Notes under the pieces: model-generated | The model's input: the letters and a program-made list of their open reading frames with translations, nothing else | Told to the model about the DNA's origin: nothing | Databases searched by the model: none | Made by a program: the position numbers and the translations under genes | Origin: Candidatus Zixiibacteriota bacterium | GTDB lineage: Bacteria > Zixibacteria > MSB-5A5 > GN15 > JAAZOE01 | Reading direction: 5' to 3' | DNA length: 64,000 bases | Assembly: GCA_043819555.1 (NCBI GenBank) | Contig: JBDREQ010000064.1 | Coordinates: 1-64,000, forward strand | Part shown: positions 35,453 through 54,360 of the stretch, in pieces | Numbering within the stretch: position 1 is the stretch's first letter | How the letters are laid out: each line of letters opens with the position of its first letter

Positions 35453-35454
35453 GT

Positions 35455-37393: not shown

Positions 37394-37397
37394 TCGG

Positions 37398-38210: not shown

Positions 38211-38812
38211 GCGGCGGCAATTATATTGAATTAAGTATAAGAAGACTACCGGCAGAAACTGAGTATTTCTGCCAGGGTTTTTATCAGATTGAAGAAGACG
38301 TATTATACGTACCGATATACCCTTCGGGACGTTTTTATTCTTATTTGGATTCAATCCCGGATAACAATATTCAAAATGCGGATAATAATAAGCAACCGCT
38401 TGCAAATCTGGATATAGATCATGAAGGACGGCTGGTATTTCTGCAAATTAAGACTCCTCGTCGGCAATGGAAGGTAAACAAATCATTGAAGCCTTCTCCG
38501 CCGATTGAATTGGCTGATGTAAGATTTATAAGTTTCCGCGAAAAAACACAATGCCTTGATATTGAAACCGATCAAAATCATTCACAGGTTCGATTGACAT
38601 TTTCCGCTAAAAAAATCAAACGCTCATTTCGTGCCGCAGACAATTTAATATTTGATCTATCTGAGGATAATTTCCTTGTTGCCATTTGGATTATTTCGAT
38701 TACCGATGACCGGGCGGCAAAGCTAATGTCGGAATGGCGTAAAGCAATGCGAATAAATCAAAAACCCGAAGATACCCAATCGTTTTATAAACGAATTGAG
38801 ATAAATAAATAA
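38189..38812 (+). CDS. Hypothetical protein with two DUF2283-like units
   Basis: 'YQIEEDVLYVPI...LDIDHEGRLVFLQI' and 'LIFDLSEDNFLVAIWI' resemble the DUF2283 pattern. Confidence 0.55.
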   Translation: MAKRAQLSGGNYIELSIRRLPAETEYFCQGFYQIEEDVLYVPIYPSGRFYSYLDSIPDNNIQNADNNKQPLANLDIDHEGRLVFLQIKTPRRQWKVNKSLKPSPPIELADVRFISFREKTQCLDIETDQNHSQVRLTFSAKKIKRSFRAADNLIFDLSEDNFLVAIWIISITDDRAAKLMSEWRKAMRINQKPEDTQSFYKRIEINK

Positions 38813-38873: not shown

Positions 38874-41780
38874 TTATTTTTTCTTTTTGGCACCCTTTTT
38901 CTTGGCAGCCGCCTTTTTCAAGGCAGGTTTCTTGGCGCCGCCCTTAATTGATTTGATGTTGGTTTTGGCGGTTTTCTTTTGGGAAGCTGCTTTTGGAGCC
39001 GGTTTCTTTTTGGCCGGAGTCTTGGTTGTTTCCTTTGGCTTAGTCACCACCTTTTGGGCCGCCATCTTTTTGCCCGTCGGTTTGGCCAGCGTACCTTTAT
39101 CTCTTAGGGTCGCTTGAGCCGCTACCAGTCGAGCAATCGGAACTCTGAAAGGTGAACAGGATACGTAGTTGAGCCCGACGTCATGGCAAAACTGAATCGA
39201 AGCAGGGTCGCCGCCATGCTCGCCGCAAATACCCACTTTCAATTCAGGATTAACGGAACGGCCTTTTTCGCATCCCATCTTTACCAGCTGGCCGACACCT
39301 ACCGTATCCAAAGAAACAAACGGATCAGCCGGCAATATGCCCTTCTCGACATAATAATTGAGAAACTTACCGGCATCATCGCGAGAAAATCCCATTGACA
39401 TCTGCGTCAGATCATTGGTTCCGAATGAGAAAAATTGAGCTTCTGCCGCGATTTCATCAGCGGTTAAAGCCGCCCTCGGAATCTCAATCATCGTTCCGAC
39501 CAGATATTTTAGTTTGGATTTCTTGCGGCTGGTAATTTCGAGAGCGATGCGCTCAACGATTTCCTTCTGATTCTTAAATTCATTGACATGACCAATCAAC
39601 GGTATCATTATTTCAGGATATACTTTTTTGCCTTTCTTGGTCAATTCATTGGCCGCCTCAAGAATGGCCCGAACCTGCATTTCAGTGATCTCAGGATAAA
39701 CAATGCCCAAGCGGCAACCACGATGGCCCAGCATGGGATTCATTTCATGAAGCTCGTCAATGCGCTGTAGCATCTTCTCAATTTTTTCCAGTTTCTCTTC
39801 ATATTGTTCGTCAGACTTTTCGAGCAATCCTATGCGAGCTTCGACCTCTTCTCGATTCGGGAGGAATTCATGAAGGGGCGGATCAAGAGTCCTGATAGTT
39901 ACCGGATAACCCTCCATGGCCGCAAAGATTTTCTTGAAATCATCTTTCTGGAATGGAAGGAGTTTATCCAGAGCGGCCTGCCGTTCTTCGGTTGTCTCAG
40001 CAAGTATCATTTCCTGTACAATCGGCAAACGCTCCTCGGAGAAAAACATATGTTCAGTGCGGCAAAGACCGATGCCTTCGGCTCCAAACTTTATCGCTTT
40101 GATGGAATCAGCCGGAGTGTCGGCGTTAGTGCGAACGCCCAGTTTTCGATATTTATCGGCCCATTCCATAAGTTCCGCGAATTCGCCCGATAATTCCGGT
40201 TCGATCGTGGGCACTTCGCCCACAATTACTTCACCAGTCGAACCATTGATGGTAATTACTTCGCCTTCCTTAATAATAAGACGGCCGATATGAAATCGCT
40301 TTTTGGCTTCGTCAACACGAATCTTTTCACAGCCGGCCACACAAGGCTTTCCCATTCCGCGCGCGACGACAGCCGCGTGCGAAGTCATACCGCCCCGACT
40401 GGTCAGGATTCCAGCGGCAGAGTTCATCCCTTCAATATCATCCGGATTAGTTTCCTGTCTGACCAAAATGCATTTTTTCTTTGCCGACACCCGTACCGCT
40501 TCCTCGGCGGTAAAAACGACCATACCGGAACCGGCACCGGGAGACGCGGCCAATCCGGTAGCCACCGAAGTATATTCGACTTTTGGATCCAAACGCGGAT
40601 GCAATAGCTGATCAAGCTGAGTCGGCTCAATACGCATCAGAGCTTCCTCTTCGGATATTAAGCCTTCTTTGACCATATCCGTCGCAATCTTCAAAGCGGC
40701 CTGGATGGTGCGCTTTCCGGAACGCGTCTGAAGCATATACAGTTTGCCTTCCTGAATAGTAAACTCAAAATCCTGAACATCCCGATAATGAGCCTCAAGA
40801 CGATCCGTAATATCTTTTAGCTGTTTATAAACATCCGGCATATCCGTTTTAAGCTGACCGATTTGAAGAGGAGTTCTGATTCCGGCGACGACATCCTCAC
40901 CCTGAGCATTATGCAGGTACTCTCCATAGAAAACCTTTGCGCCACTGCCCGGATCGCGGGTGAACCCAACGCCGGTGCCGGAAGTATTGCCCATATTTCC
41001 GTAAACCATAACCTGCACATTCACCGCCGTTCCCAGATTCGAAGGGATATTATTTAAGCGGCGGTAGCTAATCGCTCTGGGATTATTCCAGGAACGAAAA
41101 ACCGCGTCGCGTGACATTGCCAGCTGCTTATAAGGATCCTCCGGGAAAGGTTCACCGGTTTTCTTAAGTACGATTTTTTTAAATTTCGCAACAATTTCCT
41201 GAAGATCCTTAACCTGAAGAGAACTATCCTGCTTAATCCGTTTGTCCTTCTTTTTCGCGGTTATTACTTCCTCAAAGATATCTTTATCAATACCAAGAAC
41301 GACATTTCCAAACATGGAAATGAAGCGCCGATAATTATCATAACCAAAACGCTCATCACCGGCCCTGGCGATAAAACCTTTCAAGGTTTCTTCATTTAAT
41401 CCCAGATTCAGAACCGTATCCATCATACCGGGCATTGAAAACTTGGCGCCCGAGCGAACCGATACCAGAAGCGGATTTGTAGGATCGCCAAATTTGGCTC
41501 CCATGATTTTCTCCACTTTGGCCATGTATGATTTCATCTCTTTTTCAAAACCCGATGGCAAGCTCATATTATTTTCATAATACGCCAGACATGCTTCGGT
41601 CGTGATTGTAAATCCCGGCGGAACCGGAATCTTAATATTGGTCATTTCGGCCAGGCCGGCGCCTTTACCGCCAAGGAGATCTTTCATATCTCCCCTGCCC
41701 TCAGCCTTGCCAGCGCCAAAGAAATAGATAAATTTAGATTCAGCCTTGCTTGCTCTTTTTGTTTGACTTTTCTTAACCAT
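38874..41780 (-). CDS. ppdK: Pyruvate, phosphate dikinase with Lys/Ala-rich C-terminal tail
   Basis: 'LLGGKGAGLAEM', 'LLVSVRSGA..SMPGMMDT', 'GGMTSHAAVVARG', 'FSFGTNDLTQ', 'GICGEHGG'. Confidence 0.97.
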   Translation of the reverse strand: MVKKSQTKRASKAESKFIYFFGAGKAEGRGDMKDLLGGKGAGLAEMTNIKIPVPPGFTITTEACLAYYENNMSLPSGFEKEMKSYMAKVEKIMGAKFGDPTNPLLVSVRSGAKFSMPGMMDTVLNLGLNEETLKGFIARAGDERFGYDNYRRFISMFGNVVLGIDKDIFEEVITAKKKDKRIKQDSSLQVKDLQEIVAKFKKIVLKKTGEPFPEDPYKQLAMSRDAVFRSWNNPRAISYRRLNNIPSNLGTAVNVQVMVYGNMGNTSGTGVGFTRDPGSGAKVFYGEYLHNAQGEDVVAGIRTPLQIGQLKTDMPDVYKQLKDITDRLEAHYRDVQDFEFTIQEGKLYMLQTRSGKRTIQAALKIATDMVKEGLISEEEALMRIEPTQLDQLLHPRLDPKVEYTSVATGLAASPGAGSGMVVFTAEEAVRVSAKKKCILVRQETNPDDIEGMNSAAGILTSRGGMTSHAAVVARGMGKPCVAGCEKIRVDEAKKRFHIGRLIIKEGEVITINGSTGEVIVGEVPTIEPELSGEFAELMEWADKYRKLGVRTNADTPADSIKAIKFGAEGIGLCRTEHMFFSEERLPIVQEMILAETTEERQAALDKLLPFQKDDFKKIFAAMEGYPVTIRTLDPPLHEFLPNREEVEARIGLLEKSDEQYEEKLEKIEKMLQRIDELHEMNPMLGHRGCRLGIVYPEITEMQVRAILEAANELTKKGKKVYPEIMIPLIGHVNEFKNQKEIVERIALEITSRKKSKLKYLVGTMIEIPRAALTADEIAAEAQFFSFGTNDLTQMSMGFSRDDAGKFLNYYVEKGILPADPFVSLDTVGVGQLVKMGCEKGRSVNPELKVGICGEHGGDPASIQFCHDVGLNYVSCSPFRVPIARLVAAQATLRDKGTLAKPTGKKMAAQKVVTKPKETTKTPAKKKPAPKAASQKKTAKTNIKSIKGGAKKPALKKAAAKKKGAKKKK

Positions 41781-42055
41781 TTTCTTTATCTCCGCAAATC
41801 GTTTATGGTTTGAAGCTGTATTTACAAAAATTATGAACAATTTTCAAGTGTAAAGGCATAAACAAACTCTAAAAATCAATTTTTGTGGACTAAAATACCG
41901 ATTTTTAGGTATAATTCAGTACAAAATTACATATTGCTGCTTTTTTGGCTTTTATTTCACGCCAATCCTGTCGCTTGTTTTAGAGACACTGCCCCATTAG
42001 GCAAGAAACATAATAAATTTCATCCATATAATAAATCGAAAAAGAAGAGTATTAA

Positions 42056-42790: not shown

Positions 42791-42822
42791 AAAAAAAACC
42801 CCGCTCGATGACGGGGTTTTTT
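42791..42822 (-). terminator. Intrinsic terminator of the 12-gene membrane operon
   Basis: A8-CCCCG...CGGGG-T6 hairpin 25 nt past the last stop codon. Confidence 0.85.
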
Positions 42823-42846: not shown

Positions 42847-43632
42847 TCAAGCCGGCGCCTGTGCTGATTTCTTTTGCAGGTGGCGAATGATTTCAAGTAT
42901 GATTAACAAAACCAAAATCAGGGCAATTGCCCAGACAACGGTTGTCATACCTCCTCCCCCTTCGAATCCGGCCGAGACCCAGTCGCGAATTATTTGAATT
43001 CTTTGAATGAAAAGCGAGATGCGCGCCATAACTGTATATCCAAACGATGCGCCAAAACCAATCATTAGAATATATATTCCAAATTTAGCGACACCGCCAA
43101 ACGTGCCCTTATGAGCGACCGAGAAAAAGAAGTAGAATAATCCGGTAACGACTCCTAAGATTATTACTACGTCTTCAAAGCCAACCCAAAATCCCTCGGC
43201 AAAATGCTGTTTAACATCAAACAGAATATTAACCGTATCGGCCAATTGACGGCTGACCCTGTTCTGCATTTCCGTAGGAATAGCTACACCGGTAGCGATA
43301 CCGATATAAAAGGCAATCGGATAACGAGAAATCCAGGCTTTCTTTTTGGAGAAGCGAAACCACATAAGCACTCCAAGAATTCCCGGGAATAAATACCACC
43401 ATTGTCCTCCCCAGAATTGCCACCAGGGCTGTTCCGGCGTCATCCAGACTTTGTCAAAGAGAGTCGGGATTAAACTGGTATAGACCAGAATCATCGAAAA
43501 GTAACCGGCTGATACGCCGACAAATAAACTCTCGGAAAATTTATAAAACGGATTGTCTTTATACAGAAATGAAAACGTACACAGGGTGAGACAAACACCG
43601 AGAGTCGTCCAAAGAAAAGTTGCCCAATCCAT
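42847..43632 (-). CDS. Cassette copy 3, subunit D: polytopic membrane protein
   Basis: Start reassigned to MDWATFLW (TGATG overlap with C3). Motifs 'SFLYKDN.FYK..E..FVG.SAGY', 'YFFFS..HKG.FG', 'FGASFGYTVM.RISL'. Confidence 0.88.
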   Translation of the reverse strand: MDWATFLWTTLGVCLTLCTFSFLYKDNPFYKFSESLFVGVSAGYFSMILVYTSLIPTLFDKVWMTPEQPWWQFWGGQWWYLFPGILGVLMWFRFSKKKAWISRYPIAFYIGIATGVAIPTEMQNRVSRQLADTVNILFDVKQHFAEGFWVGFEDVVIILGVVTGLFYFFFSVAHKGTFGGVAKFGIYILMIGFGASFGYTVMARISLFIQRIQIIRDWVSAGFEGGGGMTTVVWAIALILVLLIILEIIRHLQKKSAQAPA

Positions 43633-44495
43633 CAGTGCGTCCCTCCTCTCCGCCTGGAAATAAAGAAACCTATATTTCCAATCAAAATAAAGATTATGAT
43701 TGTCATATGGGTCCAAACCTGAACTCTCATGGCCTCCATCGCTGGACCGGGCTTTGCCCCCGGTAATTTTTTACGGAGCAATGTTTCGTATTCAGCGGCA
43801 CCGAGCATTCCACCCATAAGTCCGAATAATTGGCCAGAGCGAAGGTATGGATAATAATCGGCTGCGGATACGCCGGTTAGTCCAGCGGCCAGAAGAGCGT
43901 TATATCTGCCGTTGGCGTAAGAAAGCCAATAATCGATTCCGCTTGTCCCCGTGATTAAAATAATACCTTCGACATTATTGTAATTAACAATGCCGTTCAT
44001 CATTGGTATGCTGTCGGTCAGCGTATTATAATAATCACTGGGGAAGGATAACCTGTAATTCTGCCCCATACTCAGGATGACAATTCCCGGATATGGTTTG
44101 TATCCGAGAAACACGACGTCCTGACCATATGTAAGTTCACGTCCGTATTTGGTTCTCACCGAATCCATAACATCAAGCATTGCTGCTTCAGCCATCCCCG
44201 GACCGTTTGGAGATAACGCGGTAATTATTAGCTTAACCCCTTTTGCCATGGCCTGCTCCATGATAGCATAAGTCATCGGATGCAACTCAGCCATTGAACC
44301 GGGATCATAGTCCACTGCGAAATGGATATACTGGCCTTCCTCAAGATTTTCAACGAAATCATAAATCGAACGAACTTCCGGATTGACACGGAGAGGCGAT
44401 TCGAATTCAATCAGAACAGTAATAATAACGACTGCGGCAAGGATCAGGTATATCCATCTTCTATCGAGTCCTGCTATTTTTTCAAAAAAATTCAT
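43632..44495 (-). CDS. Cassette copy 3, subunit C: TM - periplasmic alpha/beta domain - TM
   Basis: 'DRRWIY', 'DYDPGSMAELHPM', 'YPY..SGQL.GL.GG..GAAEYE', basic C-terminal tail. Confidence 0.88.
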   Translation of the reverse strand: MNFFEKIAGLDRRWIYLILAAVVIITVLIEFESPLRVNPEVRSIYDFVENLEEGQYIHFAVDYDPGSMAELHPMTYAIMEQAMAKGVKLIITALSPNGPGMAEAAMLDVMDSVRTKYGRELTYGQDVVFLGYKPYPGIVILSMGQNYRLSFPSDYYNTLTDSIPMMNGIVNYNNVEGIILITGTSGIDYWLSYANGRYNALLAAGLTGVSAADYYPYLRSGQLFGLMGGMLGAAEYETLLRKKLPGAKPGPAMEAMRVQVWTHMTIIIFILIGNIGFFISRRRGGTH

Positions 44496-44508
44496 ATCTC
44501 ATCCTCCC

Positions 44509-45126
44509 TCAATCGCTTCCCATATAGGTTCGTTCAATACCAAGGATAACCTTGAGAGCAGTTCCCACCATACCCAGGCCGATTCCGATAACGATCGCTC
44601 GTTTGGCGGCCATATTGGGCACGTTTAGAATCCAAGCGGCCAGATCACCGATCGGTTCGCCCAAAAATCCCAGAAATGGATTAAATCTCAACATTATAAT
44701 TATTGCGGCAAGAAGTAAAACTGTTGCCAGAAGAGAGTGTGCCCTGAATGCCCGGAATGCCGCCGAGGCGATAAAAAATGCCAATAGCGAAAACATCGTC
44801 GCGTGAAGGGGCATTATTATATACAGGAAGAAACTACGGAACATATATGATTCCAATCCTCCAAATAGGGCAAAGATGGTCATACTAATTAAGCCGGCAA
44901 GAACAACAATCGCGTATTGCCAGTTTTCCGCTTTTCGTTTTATTTTATTGGCTGAAACTCTGATCAGCGACCATATCCCCAGAGCCAGCGCAAAAATACC
45001 GATAATAATTGTCCATTCCATCACAAATTCATAAACGAATTCCGAGCTGCTGTGAGGAATAAAAAATTGTACCGCCATAAACAGGCCGGTAACAAAGACA
45101 ATCATTAGAGGAATTTCTCTTTTCAT
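44509..45126 (-). CDS. Cassette copy 3, subunit B: polytopic membrane protein
   Basis: 'MKREIP', 'TMFSLLAFFIASAAFRAFRA', 'PN.AA.RAI.IG.GLG', 'GIERTY.G'. Confidence 0.88.
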   Translation of the reverse strand: MKREIPLMIVFVTGLFMAVQFFIPHSSSEFVYEFVMEWTIIIGIFALALGIWSLIRVSANKIKRKAENWQYAIVVLAGLISMTIFALFGGLESYMFRSFFLYIIMPLHATMFSLLAFFIASAAFRAFRAHSLLATVLLLAAIIIMLRFNPFLGFLGEPIGDLAAWILNVPNMAAKRAIVIGIGLGMVGTALKVILGIERTYMGSD

Positions 45127-45139
45127 AATTTAATCCTCC

Positions 45140-46369
45140 CTAATTACCGACCCGAAAAAGGTTCATAAAGCCGTCCCAATTAAAAATAGCCGCAACGACT
45201 CCAAGTAAAATACTAATTATAACTAGTGCTTTTCCGTAGTCCTGACCTTTTAAAGAACCGAGTAAAACCGGTTCGCGACCGAGATATGCCGAAGCTGCAT
45301 AGAGTTCTTCCCCGATCAGGGTATAATCGCAAGCCACAACGAAGAAAGGAATCTGAGTAACCTCATCAGTACCGGAAATCTGAATCGATCCAGTGGCTGA
45401 TCCGGTTTCTGCCAGGATAAGCGATTCGGCGTAAAATTTACCCAAATAAAAATTCGTCGCCGGTTTTTCTCGAACCATGATTCCATTAACACCGCCAACA
45501 TATGCGAACTGCTGATTGGTAACAAAGAAAATATCATCCTCATTGTAAGCGTCCGGACGTCCGGCATCATAGTAAGCGGTCTTGACAGTTTCCTGGGCGA
45601 CCGTCATAACGATCGGATCATAACAGGGAACAATTAGCGAAGTCTGATATTCGGCGACTTTTTTGGCGACGCGGCTGAGGATAGTAAACGATGCGATAGT
45701 CGCGACGTCCGCGGCGGTACCCAATCCCAGAACGTACAAAATCGGTTTTCCCATTTCCGTGGCCCGACCAATTGCTTCGTCAACAGCGTCAATTCCCGCC
45801 AGCGGGCGAACATATAATTCCGCACCAGCCCGAGCTCTCTGGATAAAATACAGAGTAAAGATAGTAAACAGGATTACTGCGGCCGCAACTGGAGTTTTTC
45901 CCCAGTTGTAATACTGCCCCACAGCACGTACCGGCCCAAATGCTTCCGATTCAGTATTGCCATTTTTCTGAAGGGCAACTATTTTATACCAGAAGTCTTT
46001 TTCTCTTGGGAAGTAATCAGCATTATCAGATTCCTTAACGCCGCTATCCCTTTCCGAAGTATTCCCGCGAGCAACATCTTTTCGTTCCGCAAAAGGTTCA
46101 TCCGGTGATTCCGCTCGCAAAATGCGATAACCGATGAAATCTAAATTTTCATCAACATCATCGGCCGATAACTCCCATTCCAGCGATATTGAATGACCGT
46201 TATCATTGGGAGTATCAACTGCATTTACGTTTGTGGGCGGCGCCGGCAGCGCAGATTCAGCGACACTATCGGGGACTGCTTCATCTTGAGCCCATCCGGC
46301 AACGGGAATAACCAGAAGTACCATGATAAACAGTAAAAATTTGTTTTTCATAATGACTCCACTCATCAT
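45140..46369 (-). CDS. Cassette copy 3, subunit A: FN3 + TM + DUF6754-like domain + TM
   Basis: Signal peptide, FN3 'PAPPTNV.A.DTPND.G.SI.LEW', 'GRATEMG.PI', 'ESLILAETG', 'ACDYTLIGEEL.AASAYL', 'GSLKGQD'. Confidence 0.88.
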   Translation of the reverse strand: MMSGVIMKNKFLLFIMVLLVIPVAGWAQDEAVPDSVAESALPAPPTNVNAVDTPNDNGHSISLEWELSADDVDENLDFIGYRILRAESPDEPFAERKDVARGNTSERDSGVKESDNADYFPREKDFWYKIVALQKNGNTESEAFGPVRAVGQYYNWGKTPVAAAVILFTIFTLYFIQRARAGAELYVRPLAGIDAVDEAIGRATEMGKPILYVLGLGTAADVATIASFTILSRVAKKVAEYQTSLIVPCYDPIVMTVAQETVKTAYYDAGRPDAYNEDDIFFVTNQQFAYVGGVNGIMVREKPATNFYLGKFYAESLILAETGSATGSIQISGTDEVTQIPFFVVACDYTLIGEELYAASAYLGREPVLLGSLKGQDYGKALVIISILLGVVAAIFNWDGFMNLFRVGN

Positions 46370-46390
46370 CTATTATATTTATTTTGTATT

Positions 46391-47203
46391 CTATTGAATC
46401 AGTCCCAGCCAATCATCCAACAAGAATGTCAAACGTCCGACCAGAAGCGATATTCGTCCCATCACTGTGTATCCGAATGAAGCCCCAAAAGTAATCATCA
46501 GAATCCAAATGCCAAAACGCGAGCTTACACCAAAAGCTCCCTTATGCTCCTTGCTGAAAAAGAAATATATTATTCCGCAAAATACGCCCGTGAAAACTAC
46601 AAGGTTGCTTAGCATTCCGACCAATTGACCGGACGCCGCAAGAGACATATTTGAGAAAAAATGTCCAAAGCCTTGCCAATCGACTAATAAAGGCATAAAC
46701 GTAGATGAAATCTGCGAAATAAAATCTGAGCGCAAGAATCGCGGCAAATTCAAACCGGCCGTGGTTCCGACAATAAATGCCAAAGCCCATCTCGATATCC
46801 AGCCGCCTTTGGGCGACAGTCGCATCAACAGGATTATTCCTAGCGCCGGAGGAATTAAATAATGCCATTCGAATCCGGCAAACGGCACATCAAACCAGTT
46901 ACTTAAAGTTTCCGATACGCGGGGGAATAGATTGCCAACCAATGTCGTCCAAAAACCGAGACACATCCAGTAAGCTGCGGAAACACCAACATACAGATGC
47001 TCGGCGAACTTGTAAAAGGTATTATCCTTATATAAGAAAGACAACACTGCCAAGGTTAAAAATGCCGCGAATGTTACCCAGAAGGCTGACGCAAATGAAT
47101 CGAATGCAGAGGCGCTTTCAGGCGAGCCCAACATTTTAGCCCAAATGCTGAATAAAAACAATACCGCCACAACCGCAACAACGATAACTGGTCCCTTACG
47201 CAT
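46391..47203 (-). CDS. Cassette copy 2, subunit D
   Basis: Same D motifs (SFLYKDN, YFFFSKEHKG, FGASFGYTVMGRISLL). Confidence 0.88.
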   Translation of the reverse strand: MRKGPVIVVAVVAVLFLFSIWAKMLGSPESASAFDSFASAFWVTFAAFLTLAVLSFLYKDNTFYKFAEHLYVGVSAAYWMCLGFWTTLVGNLFPRVSETLSNWFDVPFAGFEWHYLIPPALGIILLMRLSPKGGWISRWALAFIVGTTAGLNLPRFLRSDFISQISSTFMPLLVDWQGFGHFFSNMSLAASGQLVGMLSNLVVFTGVFCGIIYFFFSKEHKGAFGVSSRFGIWILMITFGASFGYTVMGRISLLVGRLTFLLDDWLGLIQ

Positions 47204-48119
47204 CGATATTTTTCCTTCTGCTCCGGAAGTAAGAAATATTCCCGATTACGATAAAAGCCATCACGACAATATGCGCCAGCGTTTGCGGTCCCATCATTCT
47301 CAGGGCGGGCGCTTCGGTATCCTTAAATTGAGGATATCTCTCCATTAATTTGGATTCATATTCAGCGGCACCCTTAACGCCGCCCAAAAGGCCAACTACC
47401 TGCCTGGGATAATAAGGGTATATCTGCGGAGCCACGACAGCCGCCAAACCCGCCGCAATATCAACATTCCCCGGATCACCGATGAATTGTATCCATTCTT
47501 TTGGTCCTGGAAATCCGCCTCCAATCGCAAGTATCAAATCCATATCCGTAGCCGAATTGACATTTTTAAAAATCGGCAATTCGGATAATTCAGTATTATT
47601 ATCATCGGTCGGGTACATTTTCTGGAAATCGGTAACAATGACATTCAATACTCCAACACCGCCAGCCTTAAATCCCAGTGATGTAAAATCTACGCCATAA
47701 ACCGCGTCGGGAAAATCAGTTTTCAAAACTTCTTCAATACTTTCGGTCATAAGCGCGTGGCCGGTAGCCCAAAGAGTCATAAAATACATTTTGTGCCCTT
47801 TTGACATGCAATGCCGGACAAAAGCATTTGCCATCGGGCCCACTTCAGGCTTCATCGCTGGATCAAAATCAAATGATATTAAAATTTTTGAACCGGGCGG
47901 CATGCTATCGATCTTTTCAAATACGGCCCTGACAATGGGTGTTGGTGTCTCTTTAAACTTAATATTGAAAACTATTGCGAAGGCGACGGATAAAAATATA
48001 AACAGGAATATGATGCGGCGATCTATATCTCGGCCCTTCAGAGAATAAATCAGGATGACCAATAGACCAATCAGTACTCCGACGACGGATAGAATTGAGC
48101 CGATATTAGTCATTATCAC
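47196..48119 (-). CDS. Cassette copy 2, subunit C
   Basis: 'DRRIIF', 'DFDPAMKPEVGPM', 'GLLGGVKGAAEYE', 'QTLAH'. Confidence 0.88.
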   Translation of the reverse strand: MIMTNIGSILSVVGVLIGLLVILIYSLKGRDIDRRIIFLFIFLSVAFAIVFNIKFKETPTPIVRAVFEKIDSMPPGSKILISFDFDPAMKPEVGPMANAFVRHCMSKGHKMYFMTLWATGHALMTESIEEVLKTDFPDAVYGVDFTSLGFKAGGVGVLNVIVTDFQKMYPTDDNNTELSELPIFKNVNSATDMDLILAIGGGFPGPKEWIQFIGDPGNVDIAAGLAAVVAPQIYPYYPRQVVGLLGGVKGAAEYESKLMERYPQFKDTEAPALRMMGPQTLAHIVVMAFIVIGNISYFRSRRKNIDA

Positions 48120-48780
48120 TCCCCAGATAAGTTCGTTCCATGCCTAATATCAGCCTGAGGGACATCGATACTACGCCTAAACCGACACCGATTAGAATCG
48201 CCCTTTGCCCCGCCAAATTTGGACCGTTCATAATCCAAACGGCCAAATTTGGAATTTGGAGAACGGAAAATGATTCGGGAATCCAGCCGGTTACGGCCAT
48301 ACCCAACGGTGTCCTGCCCAATAAAATAATAAATGCCGCAATAAGGAGTATTGTGGCCTCTCGATTTTTGGCGCGAAACGCCCTGTACGACGCTGAGGCA
48401 ACAAAGAACGCCAATAGAGCGTACATTGTCGAAGATAACGGCGCGATAATATTATCGAAGATTACTTTTAATGCGGTTCCTTCGGCAATAACCGAAGCCG
48501 CGATGTTTTCACTGCCGACTTTTAGCATGCCCAATATCAGAGTCAGCAAAAACCCGGTGATGGTAACGATTGAAAATCCCCAATCGGGTTTCTTGCGATA
48601 TACTTTGGCGAAATGTATGCGGACCAGGTTTCCTCCGCCGAGGAAAAACGCGAATACCGCGATAATATCAAAAAACAGCGAGAAATCTTCACCCAACGTT
48701 TGAGCGGTCGGGAAAAAAACCGAGAGGATCAGAACAACTCCTACCACTGATGTTATGACAATCGGTATAATGCGTTTCAT
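48106..48780 (-). CDS. Cassette copy 2, subunit B
   Basis: 'STMYALLAFFVASASYRAFRA.N.EATILL', 'AGQRAI', 'GMERTYLG'. Confidence 0.88.
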   Translation of the reverse strand: MKRIIPIVITSVVGVVLILSVFFPTAQTLGEDFSLFFDIIAVFAFFLGGGNLVRIHFAKVYRKKPDWGFSIVTITGFLLTLILGMLKVGSENIAASVIAEGTALKVIFDNIIAPLSSTMYALLAFFVASASYRAFRAKNREATILLIAAFIILLGRTPLGMAVTGWIPESFSVLQIPNLAVWIMNGPNLAGQRAILIGVGLGVVSMSLRLILGMERTYLGSDND

Positions 48781-48798
48781 TTTCTAATACGATCCTCG

Positions 48799-50013
48799 CT
48801 AATTAGTTGCGAATATAGCGTTCAATATATCCAGGAGCCATTGCATTGATTCACTGCCCCAGGCATTAGCGATTGTTGCGGCCATCGTGCCCAGTAAGAT
48901 GGCGCACATTGCCATAATCTTTCCGATATCCTGCCCTTTTAATGATCCCAGCTGTTTGGGATCGCCCGATAGATAAGCCGACGCTGCAAATAATTCTTCA
49001 CCAATTAAAGTGTAATCGCAGGCGGCCACAAAAAACGGCAACTGACCTGGGCGAGCCGTACCGGCGATTTGAATCGCCCCGATACTATTACCGGTCTCGG
49101 CCAGAATCAGGGACTCCGCGAAAAAAGCGCCCAAATACAGACAGGTCGCCGGCTTTTCGCGCACCATGATTCCATTCACAGCCGCTACAAATCCAAACTG
49201 CTCATCGGTGATATACTGAACCATATCGTCGCTGTATCCATCAGGGCGTCCGGCCGACATATATGCTTCTTTTATTGTTTCTCGGGCGGAAGTCATTACC
49301 AATGAGCGCGAGACAGGCATCCTTATTTTACTATCATAGTCGGCAATAACTCGGGCAACTCGCCCCAAAATAGTTATCCCCGCAATTGTTTGAACATCGT
49401 CCATATCCTGAATACCGGCTATAAATAAAATCGGGCGTCCCATTTCGGTTGCGCGGCCAACCGCCTCTTCAATCGCTTCCAAACCCGCGATTTTTCTAAT
49501 AAAAAATTTGCGCCCGCCCTTTACAGACAATATAAAGCCTATGACCGAACCGCAAACGATAAAGGCCAGAATCAGAATATTCAATTGACCAAAATTAAAA
49601 AACTCCCATGTTGCCGCTGCGGGCCGTGATGGTTCCGAAATAGATTCACCGGCCGAATTATACGCCGCGACTTTATACTGATAAGGGATATCGTTTTCTA
49701 ACTCCTGGTCACTATAAGTAGTCTGGCCAATTATTAAATCGGTAATGTGTTCAAAATCGTTGTCCGACTGTGAACGATATAGTTTGTATCCGAGAATATT
49801 ATCGGGATCGTCAGGGGATTTTTCCCAGGTCACGATTAATATTCCACCGGCGTCATATACCGCGTTTTGGGCAGTTACATTAGTCGCCGGCAGAGGCAGA
49901 GAAACAACCAAAGAATCGGCCAATTCATCAATTGGAGTTACTTCCTCGGCGAAAACCGCCAATGAAGATATGAGACAAAACGTAAGTGCCGGCGCTAAGA
50001 ATATCTTATTCAT
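48799..50013 (-). CDS. Cassette copy 2, subunit A (FN3 + DUF6754-like)
   Basis: Start reassigned to MNKIFL (TAATG overlap with D1). FN3 'YQYKVAAYNSAGES'; same conserved C-domain. Confidence 0.88.
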   Translation of the reverse strand: MNKIFLAPALTFCLISSLAVFAEEVTPIDELADSLVVSLPLPATNVTAQNAVYDAGGILIVTWEKSPDDPDNILGYKLYRSQSDNDFEHITDLIIGQTTYSDQELENDIPYQYKVAAYNSAGESISEPSRPAAATWEFFNFGQLNILILAFIVCGSVIGFILSVKGGRKFFIRKIAGLEAIEEAVGRATEMGRPILFIAGIQDMDDVQTIAGITILGRVARVIADYDSKIRMPVSRSLVMTSARETIKEAYMSAGRPDGYSDDMVQYITDEQFGFVAAVNGIMVREKPATCLYLGAFFAESLILAETGNSIGAIQIAGTARPGQLPFFVAACDYTLIGEELFAASAYLSGDPKQLGSLKGQDIGKIMAMCAILLGTMAATIANAWGSESMQWLLDILNAIFATN

Positions 50014-50642
50014 TACGGTAATAATCCGAGCCATTGATCAAAAAGAAAATCAAGTCTTCCAAGCATAAGCGACATACGGCTCATTACCGTATATCCGAAT
50101 GAAGCTCCAAAGGTGGCCATCAAAAACCAAATGCCGACCTTTGCGGTCGCTCCAAAAAGCCCTTTATGTTCTTTACTGAAGAAGAAATAAACAAGGCCAG
50201 AACAGACTCCAACAATAATAATCAAGTTGTTTATAAAGAGACTGGCTCCGCCCCCAAAAAGAGGCACAATTGTTGCCGAAACCTGTTGCATGGCATTAGA
50301 GACAAAGTACATCATCATATATAAACCGGCCGTCGCGCCGACTATGAAAGCAAGCGGCCATCGCGCTATCCAGCCAATCTTATCAAAAAGGCGGGCCAGC
50401 ATAAGAACTCCCAAAATAAAACCGAACCATGGATAAATTAAGGGATCTGTGGCAAAAACTGTTTGTTCCAGAAATTTACTGTACATCATGTCCCAAAAAT
50501 AGACGACAAACCAGTAACCGGCCGAAGCGCCGACAAAGATCGCCTCACTTATCTTGTAGAACACATTGTCTTTATATAAGAAAGAGATAATGCCCAAAGT
50601 CAAAAGAGCAGCTACCCAAATGCCAAATACTTCCCAGCTCAT
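50013..50642 (-). CDS. Cassette copy 1, subunit D
   Basis: Same D motifs. Confidence 0.88.
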   Translation of the reverse strand: MSWEVFGIWVAALLTLGIISFLYKDNVFYKISEAIFVGASAGYWFVVYFWDMMYSKFLEQTVFATDPLIYPWFGFILGVLMLARLFDKIGWIARWPLAFIVGATAGLYMMMYFVSNAMQQVSATIVPLFGGGASLFINNLIIIVGVCSGLVYFFFSKEHKGLFGATAKVGIWFLMATFGASFGYTVMSRMSLMLGRLDFLFDQWLGLLP

Positions 50643-51637
50643 GACTTTTTCTCCTTCTTTTTCTTATCCCGAAGATAGGCGACATTACCAATTATTATAA
50701 AACCGATCACTACGATATGCGCGAACGATTGTGATAATAAAAACGTGGTTGCCTTGCCCATATATTCAGTCAGCAATTCAAATTCAGCCGCGCCTGACAT
50801 GCCTCCCATTAATCCGATTAATTGCCCCGAATTGACATAAGGATAAGCCATTGGAGCCTGAACCGCGGTATTCCCGGCTCCCATTTTTAGATTATATCTA
50901 TCAACGGCCAATTGAACCCATTCAACGGTTCCCGGCTTACCGGCAGAAAGATTTATCGAATAATCTATATTTGTAAAATTCGAAACGTTGCGCACCAATG
51001 GGATCGAATCATAAATTCGTCCATTCATATCGCGCGGGAATGTTGCCCGAATCGATTCGCCCATGCGCAGGATTACGAATTCATTCCCTGATTGAAAACC
51101 AAGATTGCAATAATCAACCCCATCAACCTTCTGCGTCCGCCATTCAGGATTTTCCACAAAAGCCGCCTCAAGCGCAAGCTGCGCCTGCTGCGGACCCATG
51201 GGCCACAAACCCATAATAATTAAATTCAAATCATGCTCGAAGGCGTATTTGATTATGCATTCCGCCATTGGTTGTAATTCTGGCGCGGACGGGGGATCAT
51301 AATCAAAAGAAACCAATATGGTCGAACCCGACTGCAGTTCAACCAATCCATCATAGACGCCTCGAACTTCAGCTGAGATTTGAATGGGAAGGGTGAATTG
51401 CATGAAAAATGGCAGGAGCAGCGAAATGCCAATCAATAAAAATACCATCCGACGCTTAACATATTTCCCTTGCAACGTCCTGACAAAAATAATAACGAAA
51501 ACCAGAAACATCAGGATGATGATGACCGTCGAAACCGTAGTCGAAAACCGAAGCGGTCCCTTCATAAAGTAACAAACAAGAAAAAATATGGCGATTAACA
51601 CCGTTGCAATAATTTCTTTCATCCTGATAGTCATCAA
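50639..51637 (-). CDS. Cassette copy 1, subunit C (extra N-terminal TM helices)
   Basis: 'DYDPPSAPELQPM', 'YPYVNSGQLIGLMGGMSGAAEFE', 'QSFAH'. Confidence 0.88.
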   Translation of the reverse strand: MMTIRMKEIIATVLIAIFFLVCYFMKGPLRFSTTVSTVIIILMFLVFVIIFVRTLQGKYVKRRMVFLLIGISLLLPFFMQFTLPIQISAEVRGVYDGLVELQSGSTILVSFDYDPPSAPELQPMAECIIKYAFEHDLNLIIMGLWPMGPQQAQLALEAAFVENPEWRTQKVDGVDYCNLGFQSGNEFVILRMGESIRATFPRDMNGRIYDSIPLVRNVSNFTNIDYSINLSAGKPGTVEWVQLAVDRYNLKMGAGNTAVQAPMAYPYVNSGQLIGLMGGMSGAAEFELLTEYMGKATTFLLSQSFAHIVVIGFIIIGNVAYLRDKKKKEKKS

Positions 51638-52284
51638 TCACCCCCCAGATACGATCGTTCAAGCCCAATAATAATTCGCAGAGAGTTGGAAACCAATCCG
51701 AGGGCGATACCCATCATAATCGCCCGCTGTCCGGCAGTATTAAGAACATTCATTATCCAGTTAGCCCATTGAGACATTTGATATTTGTAAGGAAGCCAGG
51801 AGGTAATAAGATCCCCTACCGGAACCCGTCCAAGCATTACAAAAAACGCAGCCAAAAGTAATATGGTCGCCTCAAAATTGCGAGCCCTGAAGGCTCGATA
51901 AGAAGCTGAGGCTACAAAAAACGCCAGCAGAGCAAACATAGTCGATGACAACGAACTATAGACATTGATATAAAGCCAGTCAAATGCCGTGCCAGGGTTT
52001 CGAAATTCTATCCCGCCAGCAAATCCGGCAATAGCAACGATTAAAAACGATATTATAATTATAACGGCATATGGCCAATCGGGACGTTTCCTGAAAATTT
52101 TTATGCTGGAAATTTTAATCAGATTCAACGCGCCCAGCCAGATTGCGAAAGCGGCCACAATTAAAAACCAATCGGTAAACCATTTCTCAAATTCATAAAA
52201 TGGCCAATGCGGTATGAAATAGGATATAACATACGCAACACCGACTACAAAGGTTATTATCAGGGGTATTTCTCGTCTCATCAA
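51634..52284 (-). CDS. Cassette copy 1, subunit B
   Basis: Same B motifs. Confidence 0.88.
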   Translation of the reverse strand: MMRREIPLIITFVVGVAYVISYFIPHWPFYEFEKWFTDWFLIVAAFAIWLGALNLIKISSIKIFRKRPDWPYAVIIIISFLIVAIAGFAGGIEFRNPGTAFDWLYINVYSSLSSTMFALLAFFVASASYRAFRARNFEATILLLAAFFVMLGRVPVGDLITSWLPYKYQMSQWANWIMNVLNTAGQRAIMMGIALGLVSNSLRIIIGLERSYLGGD

Positions 52285-52308
52285 AAATCCCTTATATTTT
52301 CTATTTCG

Positions 52309-53568
52309 TTAATGGGCGGCAAACCACTCCGAGATATTCCAATCCGGGTTAAGCGCCAGTAAGATTACACCAATTATAATCGCTGTCAGACAAAGCACTT
52401 TGCCTACGTCCTGCCCCTTAAGCGATCCCAAGAGTTTTGGTTCGCCTGTCAAATATGCCGACGCCGCAAAAAGTTCCTCGCCAATTAAAGTGTAGTCGCA
52501 GGCCGCGACAAAGAACGGCAATTGTGCCGGCATGGCCGTGCCCGCTATTTGAATGGCGCCAATGCTGTTACCAGTTTCAGCCATGATTAGTGATTCAGCG
52601 AAGAAGGTACCGATCAGAAAAACTGTCGCCGGTTTTTCACGCACAAATAATCCGTCAATTGCTGCAGCATATCCGAATTGATCATCAGTAAGATATCTTA
52701 CCTGATCTTCAATAAAAGAATCCGGCCGACCGGCTTTGCTGTATGCTTCTTTGACGACTTCTTTGGCCGTGACCATAACCATAGAACGGCAAACCGGTAC
52801 ATCTATTCGGGTATCGTTTTCGGCGGCAATCGTCGCAACCCGACCCAAAATTGACATACTGGCAAGGGTTTGAACATCATCCATATCATGAATGCCCGGA
52901 ACATAATATATTGAACGCCCCATTTCCGTGGCACGTCCCACCGCATTCTCCACTTCTTCAATACCGGCAATTTTCCGGATATAAAATTTCTTCCCGCTTT
53001 TGGCCGCAAAGATAAAATAAATAATTGAGGATGACAGCAGGATCGTACCGATAAAAATTACAAAGCGACTCATATTAAACCATTGAGAGACAGATTTCAC
53101 AGGTCCAATCACGGCAGAACTACTCGATGTCGACCATAAAACATTCCCGCCCGTTTTGACAAAATTCACAGTAATGATTTTATAATAGTATTCCGTATCG
53201 GTAGGCGCCTGAAAATCAGTAAACGTAGTATGCCCTTGCGGGGTACTGCCCAGTTCCGTGAATTCTCCTTCCGGCGATGTACTGCGTAATATCTTATATT
53301 CCATTACATTGCCGCCTTCATAGTCGTCTGGCGATCTTTCCCAGTTGATTACAATGGCATCACCCTTATCATTTGCATTGTCAAAGGCGTTAATATCAAA
53401 GGCAGGCTGCGGGGTTAGTTCCTCCAAAAACGACGAATCATAAACCTGTTGGGCTAGAGTATCTGTATTTGATTCAACCGGTTCGGATTGAGCTATAGCT
53501 TTTGGTGAGGATAGTACTAATGAAAATAGAACGGCATAAAAAGAAAAAACACTAAGTCGTTTAAGCAT
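52309..53568 (-). CDS. Cassette copy 1, subunit A (FN3 + DUF6754-like)
   Basis: Signal peptide, FN3 'AFDNANDKGDAIVINWERSPDD...EYYYKI', conserved C-domain. Confidence 0.88.
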   Translation of the reverse strand: MLKRLSVFSFYAVLFSLVLSSPKAIAQSEPVESNTDTLAQQVYDSSFLEELTPQPAFDINAFDNANDKGDAIVINWERSPDDYEGGNVMEYKILRSTSPEGEFTELGSTPQGHTTFTDFQAPTDTEYYYKIITVNFVKTGGNVLWSTSSSSAVIGPVKSVSQWFNMSRFVIFIGTILLSSSIIYFIFAAKSGKKFYIRKIAGIEEVENAVGRATEMGRSIYYVPGIHDMDDVQTLASMSILGRVATIAAENDTRIDVPVCRSMVMVTAKEVVKEAYSKAGRPDSFIEDQVRYLTDDQFGYAAAIDGLFVREKPATVFLIGTFFAESLIMAETGNSIGAIQIAGTAMPAQLPFFVAACDYTLIGEELFAASAYLTGEPKLLGSLKGQDVGKVLCLTAIIIGVILLALNPDWNISEWFAAH

Positions 53569-53719
53569 AACGATTCCTTATTATTGTGCCGCCTATTATG
53601 CCCCGCACGATAGGGATTATGCGAAAATCCGGTTATATACTAAGACGATTGACACACAATTGTGTTCAATCGTTTTGAAATAGATTCACATATTATTAAA
53701 AGCGGCAAACATTGCGGAT

Positions 53720-53748
53720 AATGTACACCCGACTCAAATTCAAGTCAA
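53720..53748 (-). promoter_or_regulatory. Sigma70-type promoter of the membrane operon
   Basis: TTGACT-N17-TACATT on the minus strand, about 150 nt upstream of A1. Confidence 0.55.
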
Positions 53749-54360
53749 GCCAAATATGTGTTATGTTTTTTTGGGGGGGGTGGTTTCCATAGGATTATTC
53801 CGCATCAGGCGGGGATGCAAAAAAATGGTTGCGATAAATTCATTTTGCTTCCCAATATTCCATTGACTGAAGAACCCAATCCGTTTTGACCATAATTAAC
53901 ACCCCCTGAACCTTGTCCACCGGCATCAACTGCAATAATATCGGCCTCAATTTTCCTGAAGTTTTGTAGCCATATATAAATTCGAGCGCTAAGGGTCAAA
54001 TTGGGAACGGTCTGCAATAAGTATCCAGTCTCTGCTTTGATATCAAGACTATTTTTGATCTGCTGCAGTAATCCGACAAATAAGATACCCGGAAGAATCT
54101 GAGGTGTTATTTGAAGTCTCCATTATTATCCAAAATCCATATGTAATATATTTTATTTGACGCTTTACAATTCAGCTTGGATTGATTATAATGGCGCCAT
54201 TCGCCGGTTAGATATTATAGTCTTGATTATGGTAGATTATGAAATAGGTTTTTAATACCATTTGGGAAGCGAACTGACGGATGATCACGTCGGCCCGGAT
54301 GTTCCGCGCCGACCGTCTGTTTTTAACAAAAATATTGGGCTAGGAGATTTGGAGAATTTC

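Follow-up and report, generated by a model that had tools for sequence, protein, structure and literature searches.

Which machine is encoded by an array that repeats the same four membrane-protein genes three times in tandem, and does it work on its own? The array lies on the minus strand (42847–53568) of a 64,000-nucleotide stretch of a Candidatus Zixiibacteriota contig, hereafter the window. The list of open reading frames (ORFs) gave exactly 12 intact minus-strand genes filling this region in the order (A-B-C-D)×3, as the initial annotation had stated, and the tight packing it had described was also found, with gaps of −22 to +24 nt between neighbours except at C3/D3. There the ORFs as called overlap (−85 nt), which is an artefact of the ORF caller: an internal ATG of D3 at 43632 (residue 29, MDWATF...) shares a single nucleotide with the C3 stop, so that this junction is of the TAATG/TGATG type noted before, and the alignment of D3 with D1 begins at residue 29 of the D3 ORF. 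Directly after D3 lies a terminator-like hairpin (42793–42822; 11 G+C base pairs with an A run and a T run on either side), in agreement with the strong terminator that had been claimed. The presumed promoter region is the intergenic segment between A1 and a divergent TPR gene (53569–54261), where several sigma-70-like matches fall within 53720–54255 and the region as a whole holds 44 consensus matches against 28.7 expected. The three tandem cassettes are probably transcribed as one mRNA ending at the hairpin.

Composition and age of the cassettes

All 12 genes are on the minus strand. The first cassette consists of A1 (52309–53568, 419 aa), with a signal peptide, an FN3-like ectodomain, a transmembrane (TM) helix, a cytoplasmic DUF6754 domain and a second TM helix; B1 (51634–52284, 216 aa), a polytopic membrane protein with five to six hydrophobic segments; C1 (50639–51637, 332 aa), with extra N-terminal TM helices before a TM helix, an outward Rossmann-like domain, another TM helix and a basic tail; and D1 (50013–50642, 209 aa), a polytopic protein carrying the motifs SFLYKDN and FGASFGYTVM. 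In the second cassette, A2 (48799–50034, 411 aa) has the same signal peptide, FN3, TM, DUF6754 and TM order, B2 (48106–48780, 224 aa) is 51% identical to B1, C2 (47196–48119, 307 aa) is 33% identical to C1 and 31% to C3, and D2 (46391–47203, 270 aa; 52% identity to D1) has an extra N-terminal hydrophobic segment. The third is formed by A3 (45140–46369, 409 aa; signal peptide, FN3-like region, TM, DUF6754, TM), B3 (44509–45126, 205 aa; 45% identity to both B1 and B2), C3 (43632–44495, 287 aa), which is the minimal form with a TM helix, six beta-alpha units, a long TM helix and an RRR tail, and D3 (42847–43716), an ORF of 289 aa whose likely start at 43632 gives 261 aa and which has an extra C-terminal TM helix.

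The earlier suggestion that A resembles Pfam DUF6754 (PF20539) proved correct: A1 (residues 161–410), A2 and A3 scored 397.9, 401.7 and 400.0 bits against a cut-off of 27 bits, and together with a fourth copy in the genome the A proteins gave 392–402 bits over the whole 257-position model (E about 1e-120). FN3 in A was likewise supported by Pfam (A2, 30.6 bits), by a profile match to titin FN3 in the PDB (E 8.5e-25) and by the AF2 model of A2 (pLDDT 91.9; fold match Z 13.9), and FN3 took up all the matches in fold searches with this model. Neither B, C nor D matched a sequence family in Pfam, NCBIfam, PADLOC or the PDB; B1 had no Pfam family above cut-off and no PDB relative, C1 no Pfam or PDB relative, and D1 no Pfam, NCBIfam or PDB relative and no named Atlas cluster. 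An hhalign comparison of B with D gave a probability of 0.6%, so that no relation between the two families was detectable. The AF2 model of C3 (pLDDT 95.6, pTM 0.90) matched only generic Rossmann-like folds among the matches listed (best Z 9.0, TM-score at most 0.34). Family and profile searches of A–D, PDB sequences included, returned no relative among characterised transporters or complexes, in line with the initial annotation. Its quoted motifs were present, with one correction: four residues, not three, separate D[YF]DP from E..PM in C.

The topology proposed earlier fits the charge distribution and the structure models. In A, the signal peptide and outward FN3 are followed by a TM helix, a K/R-rich stretch, the cytoplasmic alpha/beta domain and the second TM helix, and in C an RR motif precedes the first TM helix, the alpha/beta domain faces outward and the last TM helix is followed by the basic tail. 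Conservation differed strongly between these parts. The cytoplasmic domain of A had the highest mean pairwise identity of all cassette parts (67.5%, 104 sequences), compared to 48–49% for B and D, 42% for the C ectodomain and 29% for FN3. The 120 long A forms listed included 58 with PQQ-type beta-propellers, seven with several FN3 domains and one with RHS repeats, and two third-cassette B proteins contained an FG-GAP insert.

The three copies are paralogous and old, as had been claimed. Identities between copies were 45–50% for A, 45–51% for B, 31–36% for C and 44–52% for D, with local alignment scores of 331–948, whereas pairwise scores across the A, B, C and D families were 31–44, indicating no similarity between families. 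Synonymous sites between paralogs were saturated (pS 0.73–0.85) while pN was 0.33–0.47, and in the trees copies 1, 2 and 3 formed separate, position-matched clades: A1 grouped with the first cassettes of loci L005 and L006 (copy-1 clade, SH-aLRT 99), and A2 and A3 fell in the copy-2 and copy-3 clades (SH-aLRT 97 and 99, respectively). These substitution patterns point to purifying selection on the cassette genes. A further cassette, absent from the initial annotation, is located on another contig of the same genome (G000:C66, 36156–39339), and its A protein has no FN3.

Conserved gene order and an ASKHA ATPase near the cassettes

The expectation that A–D homologs co-localise in other genomes held. 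Of 73 loci, which represent more than 10 phyla (labelled Zixibacteria, Ignavibacteria, WOR-3, Acidobacteriota, Planctomycetota, Fermentibacteria, Cloacimonadota, Poribacteria, Marinimicrobia and others), at least 60 contained one or more full A-B-C-D runs, the remaining loci being mostly broken by contig ends or an N gap, and matches to the B1-family HMM adjoined A in other genomes. DUF6754 was found in all 201 searched genomes of this phylum (labelled Zixibacteria), mostly with two to six matches per genome. Two loci (L070 and L077) have A without B–D, which counts against the reading favoured below.

A link that the initial annotation did not contain emerged from the neighbourhoods of these loci. 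The window also encodes E (30470–32323, minus strand, 617 aa), a GlmL/MutL-type ATPase of the ASKHA (actin/Hsp70) fold (PF13941, 436.9 bits) that retains the ASKHA nucleotide and phosphate motifs, and F (28471–29604, minus strand, 377 aa), a soluble barrel-sandwich-hybrid protein that is the constant companion of E. Between them lies G (29638–30507, minus strand, 289 aa), with a signal or anchor helix, an outward domain, a C-terminal TM helix and a weak PsbP match (E 0.0065); this is its place in Zixibacteria-type loci, and relatives stand between E and F in six of the 73 loci. In 32 of the 73 loci, E and/or F lay no more than 6 kb from a cassette: 17 have the co-directional order E-F-A-B-C-D, with F placed directly between E and A and several phyla represented, five have F-A at the start of the locus, eight have a divergent F-G-E | A arrangement and two have the genes downstream. 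E was present in 41 of 41 Zixibacteria genomes, with one match in 39, against two to six DUF6754 matches in the same genomes; in many of them E and A are within a few kilobases of one another. The genome studied here has one copy each of E and F versus four cassettes.

From this synteny, E is probably a cytoplasmic partner of the cassette, and the self-contained A–D machine implied earlier is unlikely. Pfam and NCBIfam searches found no nucleotide-binding motif in the cassette proteins, but with E and F encoded nearby, a missing Walker A in A–D is no proof against ATP coupling. Against a shared engine, neither E nor F was found within the stored flanks of 41 of the 73 loci, and in the window E-G-F is about 10.5 kb from the array, with Tol-Pal and PPDK genes between. 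In locus L074, A shares its first 4 nt with the gene of an orphan Opp-type ABC ATPase, an arrangement that may represent a swap of the ATPase and, if so, would count for the reading favoured below.

Candidate roles of the modules

We tentatively favour a set of interchangeable membrane modules that share one ATPase and probably serve uptake, a reading that we hold at somewhat less than even odds. Each A-B-C-D cassette would form one inner-membrane module with B and D as its polytopic core, to which A would supply the outward FN3 and the very conserved cytoplasmic Rossmann-like domain (DUF6754), and C an outward Rossmann-like domain. E-F would be the shared ATP-driven engine docking on the near-invariant domain of A, and the variable outward parts (the C domain, FN3 of A, and elsewhere beta-propellers or the FG-GAP of B) would give each module its own ligand. 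The likeliest task would be import of nutrients, perhaps derived from peptides or amino acids; clues to a substrate among the genes near cassettes are weak and scattered, namely M28 peptidases, one Opp-type ATPase, TonB-dependent receptors and acyl-CoA dehydrogenases. If this reading is true, the cassettes may belong to an ATP-driven membrane machine of a new kind.

FN3, beta-propellers and FG-GAP are typical protein- or glycan-binding scaffolds, not classical solute-binding proteins, so an envelope machine without solute import fits these outward domains as well. E, with F, would then work on or assemble at the cytoplasmic domain of A, and the modules would relay force, position or a signal to outward binding domains that hold glycan, wall or surface proteins. 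Such a machine would serve for scaffolding, anchoring, motility or signalling across the membrane. The outward add-ons are indeed of adhesion or scaffold types (FN3, PQQ/BamB-like beta-propellers, RHS repeats, FG-GAP), cassettes have bactofilin genes as neighbours in L055 and L057, in four WOR-3/Stahlbacteria loci D is followed by DUF4388 genes, the E-F operon includes the membrane-anchored outward protein G, and chaperones and filament formers are common among ASKHA proteins. We nevertheless regard this role as somewhat less likely: there was no sign of E polymerising and the named proteins closest to it are GlmL-type accessory proteins, the bactofilin and DUF4388 neighbours occur in only two to four loci each, and several diverged modules per single ATPase resemble specificity modules more. 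In the C ectodomain, conserved glycine-rich and acidic motifs lie along the C-terminal edge of the sheet, where Rossmann-like folds usually bind small ligands.

That A–D alone move an ion or solute by the membrane potential, the E-F neighbourhood reflecting shared regulation or metabolism instead of physical coupling, would agree with a cassette free of nucleotide-binding motifs, with the loci whose flanks lack E and F, and with the compact array of this window, which forms a separate unit and ends in a terminator of its own. Such a secondary transporter or channel appears improbable given the contiguous E-F-A-B-C-D runs across phyla, the presence of E in 41 of 41 genomes of a phylum where DUF6754 is in 201 of 201, and the extreme conservation of the cytoplasmic domain of A, which suggests that this domain has a conserved partner in the cytoplasm or is catalytic; a weak further point is that the invariant columns include no acidic or basic residue in the mid-membrane segments of B and D. 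Still less probable is a membrane-bound enzyme complex, in which two Rossmann-like domains, one per membrane side, would bind phosphorylated or lipid-linked substrates; the chemistry would resemble glycosyl transfer or group translocation, and the ASKHA protein would be a kinase. ASKHA proteins do include sugar and acid kinases, and invariant polar residues of A (GRATEMG, REKPAT, AESL..AETG, IQIAGT, ACDYT.xGEE) and of C (D.DP....E..PM, GG..GAAE.E) lie at strand ends and helix starts. The weak best matches of C include the glycosyltransferases TagA (E 0.18) and OtsA (Foldseek E 1e-4, TM-score 0.29), but all of these are at noise level, and the best VIA Z of 9.0 is tied with unrelated Rossmann-like folds. 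F has no conserved His at 95% conservation, which argues against a PTS-like relay, just one Cys, located in A, shows wide conservation (at least 90% of sequences), and enzymes are rarely present as four to six diverged full cassettes per genome.

Relation to known systems

The shared-ATPase arrangement that we favour resembles group II ECF transporters, in which one EcfAA'T energising module is common to several S components: here too the cytoplasmic ATPase unit is single-copy and the genome carries several diverged membrane modules at separate sites. The likeness is of design only, as there is no sequence relation, A–D matched no ECF or ABC Pfam family, the ATPase has the ASKHA and not the ABC fold, and each module comprises four proteins, with large domains facing both the cytoplasm and the exterior. 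Rnf and Na+-NQR complexes likewise have two small polytopic subunits (RnfA/E, NqrD/E), comparable to those of about 210 aa here, and F weakly matched RnfC_N and NqrA_N, which represent the N-terminal barrel-sandwich of RnfC/NqrA (E 0.003–0.01), and Biotin_lipoyl, all below cut-off. However, in 21 genomes (20 relatives and this one, with B and D among the proteins searched) the PF02508 model had no match, neither flavin nor Fe-S motifs were seen, and B and D have no detectable relation to each other.

GlmL/MutL is the accessory protein of coenzyme-B12 glutamate mutase, and Or-4 is its ornithine-degradation relative. E resembles both (PF13941; NF040745, NF040744, TIGR01319) in its end-to-end PF13941 match and ASKHA motifs, but it scores far below the curated GlmL/Or-4 cut-offs (225.8 vs. 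475, 216.2 vs. 600 and 169.5 vs. 204), is longer by about 130 residues at its C terminus and always occurs together with F, and this genome encodes no glutamate mutase E subunit. No solved relative of E was found by sequence. For A, the Pfam entry DUF6754 is a catalogue entry without a function, covering the domain of A alone and not B, C, D or the link to E-F. Our literature search found no paper mentioning DUF6754 or PF20539, and as far as this search extends, the four-protein unit is widespread and has never been studied. In the source annotations, members of the A family are named 'DUF6754 domain-containing' or 'fibronectin type III domain-containing' protein.

The twelve-gene array and its four protein families

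The twelve co-directional genes described in the initial annotation correspond to exactly 12 minus-strand ORFs of 205-419 aa, which fill window positions 42847-53568. Sequence comparison grouped the ORFs into four families, arranged as three successive A-B-C-D sets, as had been claimed. The pairwise identities between copies were 45-50% for A, 45-51% for B, 31-36% for C and 44-52% for D, and there was no similarity across the four families in pairwise comparison of the 12 proteins. The spacing of adjacent genes ranged from -22 to +24 nt; C3 and D3 apparently overlap by 85 nt, which becomes a 1-base overlap on the C3 stop when the start of D3 is placed at the internal ATG 43632. Directly 3ʹ of D3 lies a hairpin (42793-42822) with 11 G+C pairs and runs of A and T on either side. 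A consensus scan of the region upstream of A1 gave 44 promoter-consensus matches versus 28.7 expected, which is uninformative. The motifs listed in the initial annotation were found in the proteins, except that D[YF]DP and E..PM in the C motif are separated by four residues instead of three. The same-strand A-B-C-D order, present three times in the window, occurs once more on another contig of the same genome, where this fourth cassette adjoins metK and ahcY and its A protein has no FN3 domain.

The resemblance of A to DUF6754 stated in the initial annotation was borne out: PF20539 (gathering score 27 bits) matched A1, A2 and A3 end to end with 397.9, 401.7 and 400.0 bits, respectively, and the fourth-copy A with 392.6 bits in a six-frame search. 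The N-terminal part of A is an FN3 domain. PF00041 matched this region of A2 with 30.6 bits against a threshold of 25 bits, while A1 and A3 taken alone fell below the Pfam threshold; the family profile of the region matched titin FN3 in the PDB at E 8.5e-25, and the A2 model aligned with FN3 structures over 104 residues (Z 13.9, rmsd 2.6). Pfam, NCBIfam and PADLOC contained no family for B, C or D, and profile searches with these proteins and with the DUF6754 part of A found no PDB sequence relative below E 0.1. In the ESM Atlas, the clusters nearest to C were unnamed ("hypothetical protein"), with Zixibacteria and Latescibacterota as the commonest taxa, and D had no usable named cluster. Current annotations of the system read "DUF6754", "fibronectin type III protein" or "hypothetical" and, misleadingly, "glutamate mutase L".

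Structures of A and C were predicted by AlphaFold2 from alignments of 104 and 94 natural sequences, respectively. The A2 model (pLDDT 91.9) consists of a signal helix, FN3 at residues 51-141, a TM helix at 148-172, six beta-alpha units at 183-356 and a long TM helix; in the C3 model (pLDDT 95.6, pTM 0.90), six beta-alpha units lie between a first TM helix and a long C-terminal one. In fold searches with the C domain, the best match by VIA had Z 9.0 (1kjn, rmsd 3.8, 140 residues aligned), tied with KtrA/TrkA (RCK/KTN) at Z 8.4-8.6, a sirtuin at 8.3 and a sugar-binding protein at 8.2, and the Foldseek TM-score was at most 0.34 among the matches listed. As judged from the predicted model, these matches are generic Rossmann-like only. 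The whole A model returned only FN3 structures among the matches listed; an alignment with the C-terminal domain of Nir2, 325 columns at rmsd 25.9, was discarded as meaningless.

In A, a K/R-rich stretch follows the first TM helix and the C-terminal tail is acidic, and in C the first TM helix is preceded by an RR pair and the last one followed by a basic tail. Together with the signal peptide of A, this charge distribution assigns DUF6754 to the cytoplasmic side and the C domain to the outer side, in agreement with the topology proposed initially. By hhalign, relatedness was detectable neither between B and D (probability 0.6%) nor between A and C (6.9%, confined to a TM helix). The A and C models share the order TM helix, six beta-alpha units and long TM helix; as this order is generic, we do not claim that the cassette consists of two inverted paralog pairs. 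Upon complex prediction with A1 158-419, B1, C1 58-332 and D1, A being the partner, a control in which C was replaced reached the score of the real set, so that the prediction speaks neither for nor against binding.

Distribution, age and modular ectodomains of the cassette

DUF6754 was found in all 201 sampled genomes of the phylum Candidatus Zixiibacteriota, mostly with 2-6 matches each, and in none of 14 control genomes. A pattern scan of the genomes of 185,579 species gave at least 633 matching stretches, 616 of which were confirmed, and the total was estimated at about 6000. We searched 73 kept loci with HMMs built from the four copies of this genome. The loci were labeled as Zixibacteria, Ignavibacteria, WOR-3, Stahlbacteria, Acidobacteriota, Planctomycetota/Phycisphaerae, Fermentibacteria, Aegiribacteria, Cloacimonadota, Poribacteria, Coatesbacteria, Eisenbacteria, Edwardsbacteria, Marinimicrobia and a "Deltaproteobacteria" bin. 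A complete A-B-C-D run, or several (up to three in tandem), was present in 60 of the 73 loci, so that the homologs of A-D co-localize in other genomes, as the four-gene complex of the initial annotation would have it. The loci without a full run were mostly cut by contig ends, and L015 by an N gap. L070 and L077 carry a solitary A without B, C and D, followed by an unrelated membrane-anchored protein in L070 and by an opposite-strand gene in L077, which also forms the longest branch in the tree of A.

Between the paralogs of the array, pS was 0.73-0.85, i.e. saturated, and pN was 0.33-0.47, compared to a pN of 0.12-0.20 between the array and the orthologous cassettes of another genome (L005). 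As dS was saturated in 14 of 20 comparisons, no meaningful dN/dS ratio could be obtained. A tree of the DUF6754 domain, built from 104 sequences by a quick method with SH-aLRT as the only support, put copies 1, 2 and 3 into three separate clades (SH-aLRT 99, 97 and 99), each consisting of first-, second- or later-position cassettes from arrays of other Zixibacteria-type genomes; separate orthologous clades for the three copies had been suggested as a check initially. The position-matched clades and the saturated synonymous differences indicate that the triplication is old and its order conserved, which bears out the earlier view of old paralogs rather than a recent amplification. The placement of copy 4 is unsure because of its long branch. 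Several bins labeled "uncultured Ignavibacteria/Ignavibacteriales" group tightly inside the Zixibacteria cassette clades (for example L028 with L031, L036 with L039); either these bins are mislabeled or the arrays are common to both groups.

Conservation is graded along the cassette, with mean pairwise identities over full alignments of 67.5% for the cytoplasmic domain of A, 48.8% for B, 48.3% for D, 41.8% for the C ectodomain and 29.1% for the FN3 region of A. FN3 is replaced or extended in long homologs of A (735-2095 aa), of which there were 441 at E ≤1e-10 among 1105 candidates. Among the 120 of these 441 that were listed, 58 carry PQQ/BamB-like beta-propellers, 7 several FN3 domains and 1 RHS repeats, and the remaining ones have DUF6754 alone. 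B can be extended as well: the third-cassette B of L028 (10932-12707) and that of L031 (11229-13001) each have about 370 aa of FG-GAP repeats inserted (E about 5e-28). L071 encodes a long B (610 aa) whose insert has no Pfam match.

E and F as putative partners of the cassette

A Pfam scan of 116 flank ORFs, out of 169 collected around the loci, showed that PF13941 ("MutL", a GlmL-type ASKHA ATPase) recurs in the flanks and is followed by an approximately 375-aa protein that has no Pfam family. The corresponding genes in the window are E (30470-32323, minus strand; PF13941 436.9 bits) and F (28471-29604, minus strand), the latter with weak barrel-sandwich matches (RnfC_N, E 0.009); between them lies G (29638-30507, minus strand), encoding a membrane-anchored outward protein. 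When all locus ORFs were searched by phmmer with E, F and G, E and/or F were present in 32 of the 73 loci, arranged as co-directional E-F-A-B-C-D (17 loci), as F-A at the start of the locus (5), as F-G-E divergent from A (8) or downstream of the cassette (2). E occurs in all 41 sampled genomes of the phylum, with one match in 39, and in many of them it maps no more than a few kb from a DUF6754 gene. The present genome (97.13% complete) has one copy each of E and F and four cassettes, a 4:1 cassette to E-F ratio. Both proteins are extremely conserved (22 and 24 sequences, respectively), and the ASKHA motifs for phosphate and adenosine are retained in E. PDB sequence profile searches with E and F alone gave nothing useful.

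E-F directly adjoins a cassette in most relatives, unlike in the window, where E-G-F and the array are 10.5 kb apart. The intervening DNA holds a Tol-Pal-like cluster at 33571-38812 (plus strand), with MotA/ExbB-type, TonB_2, TolB, OmpA-family and TPR/YbgF-like proteins, and a pyruvate phosphate dikinase gene at 38874-41840 (minus strand). In a Marinimicrobia contig (L068, 14-2626), E and F form one 870-aa open frame directly upstream of A-B-C-D, and this reading frame points to a natural fusion of the two.

Catalogued families cover only A (DUF6754, FN3) and E (PF13941), neither with a function described in this context. A full-text literature search returned no paper on DUF6754, PF20539 or PF13941, and among the titles and opening lines of abstracts listed for GlmL/ASKHA there was nothing relevant. 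E scored 225.8 bits with NF040745 against an equivalog cut-off of 475, 216.2 versus 600 bits with the Or-4 model, and 169.5 versus 204.05 bits with TIGR01319. As these scores are far below the curated cut-offs and the glutamate mutase E subunit (PF06368) has no match in this 97.13% complete genome, E is not a true GlmL.

In layout only, with one engine serving many modules, the cassettes and E-F resemble group II ECF transporters; A-D matched no ECF family (EcfT/CbiQ, S components) in Pfam or NCBIfam. The 12 array proteins had no match to ABC_tran or ABC permease families at E ≤0.1 in Pfam and none in NCBIfam; B1 gave a sub-threshold TMD0_ABC match of 20.2 versus 27 bits. The likeness to Rnf/Nqr, which have two small polytopic subunits and a soluble barrel-sandwich subunit, is fainter. 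We rejected this identity because PF02508 was found in none of 21 genomes searched in six frames, this genome included, and because the matches of F stay below the cut-offs (16.5 versus 25.6 bits for RnfC_N; 18.1 versus 25 bits for NQRA_N with the F relative of L023). A phospho-relay of the PTS type finds no support, since no His in F reaches 95% conservation. Known anti-phage defense was also rejected, with no PADLOC family matching A1, B1, C1, D1, E, G or F at E ≤0.01.

Possible function and gene neighborhoods

The feature is real, strongly conserved and uncharacterized, and it probably represents a new type of system. Its mechanism we infer, including the assembly of A-D, the docking of E-F, the coupling to ATP and any substrate. 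The best reading, which we hold tentatively and at a little short of an even chance, is a modular machine with a shared E-F, the likeliest task of which would be uptake. In such a machine, B and D would form the membrane core, the C domain, the A ectodomain and the inserts in B would make up an outward, diversifying face, DUF6754 would be the cytoplasmic, almost invariant face, and a single cytoplasmic ATPase pair, E-F, would be common to all modules. The cassette is frequent in uncultured, often peptide-fermenting lineages, in which nutrient uptake is poorly understood. With rather more doubt, we suggest that DUF6754 cassettes and E-F may constitute a new class of primary active membrane machine, in which an ASKHA ATPase, and not an ABC, P-type or rotary one, would drive several interchangeable four-subunit modules via the near-invariant cytoplasmic domain of A, each module being tuned to a different outside ligand. 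To our knowledge, the well-studied ATP-driven membrane machines all run on a few engine types, namely ABC, P-type, rotary and AAA+/secretion ATPases. If the suggestion is true, an actin/Hsp70-fold ATPase coupled to a four-subunit membrane module would be an added engine type. Direct testing is feasible with compact genes and partners identified through synteny.

A machine of the envelope with a task other than transport is somewhat unlikely, and the scaffold-type ectodomains and the occasional bactofilin or DUF4388 neighbors speak for it. A secondary transporter, for which the cassette would be self-contained, seems improbable, and a membrane enzyme is more improbable still. With regard to a substrate for the favored modular machine, the gene neighborhoods offer scattered and weak hints in the form of M28 peptidases, TonB-dependent receptors, acyl-CoA dehydrogenases and one Opp-type ATPase. 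M28 peptidases adjoin cassettes in four loci (L042, L043, L066 and L076) and F in the window, and TonB-dependent receptors follow D in three Fermentibacteria/Aegiribacteria loci.

In four WOR-3/Stahlbacteria loci (L029, L032, L034 and L038), two genes directly follow D on the same strand, one for a DUF4388 protein and one for a product of about 220 aa without Pfam match; upstream, in the opposite orientation, are acyl-CoA dehydrogenase genes. The Opp-type ABC ATPase (ABC_tran and oligo_HPY) of L074 is an orphan at 4892-5917 (plus strand) that shares 4 nt with the start of A; the 5.9 kb upstream of it contain no ABC permease gene, and the products encoded upstream are a MutL of DNA mismatch repair and a DUF5610 protein. 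Two window ORFs, 56104-57618 (plus strand, 504 aa) and 58342-59037 (minus strand, 231 aa), had no Pfam match at E ≤1e-5. Directly beside F, at 25421-28401 (plus strand), lies the M28 peptidase of the window, which has a T9SS C-terminal sorting domain and is seemingly split into two ORFs in different frames. The ORF at 25421-26401 covers positions 9-59 of the Pfam M28 family and that at 26419-28401 positions 89-187, and the split may reflect a frameshift, an error of sequencing or a pseudogene.
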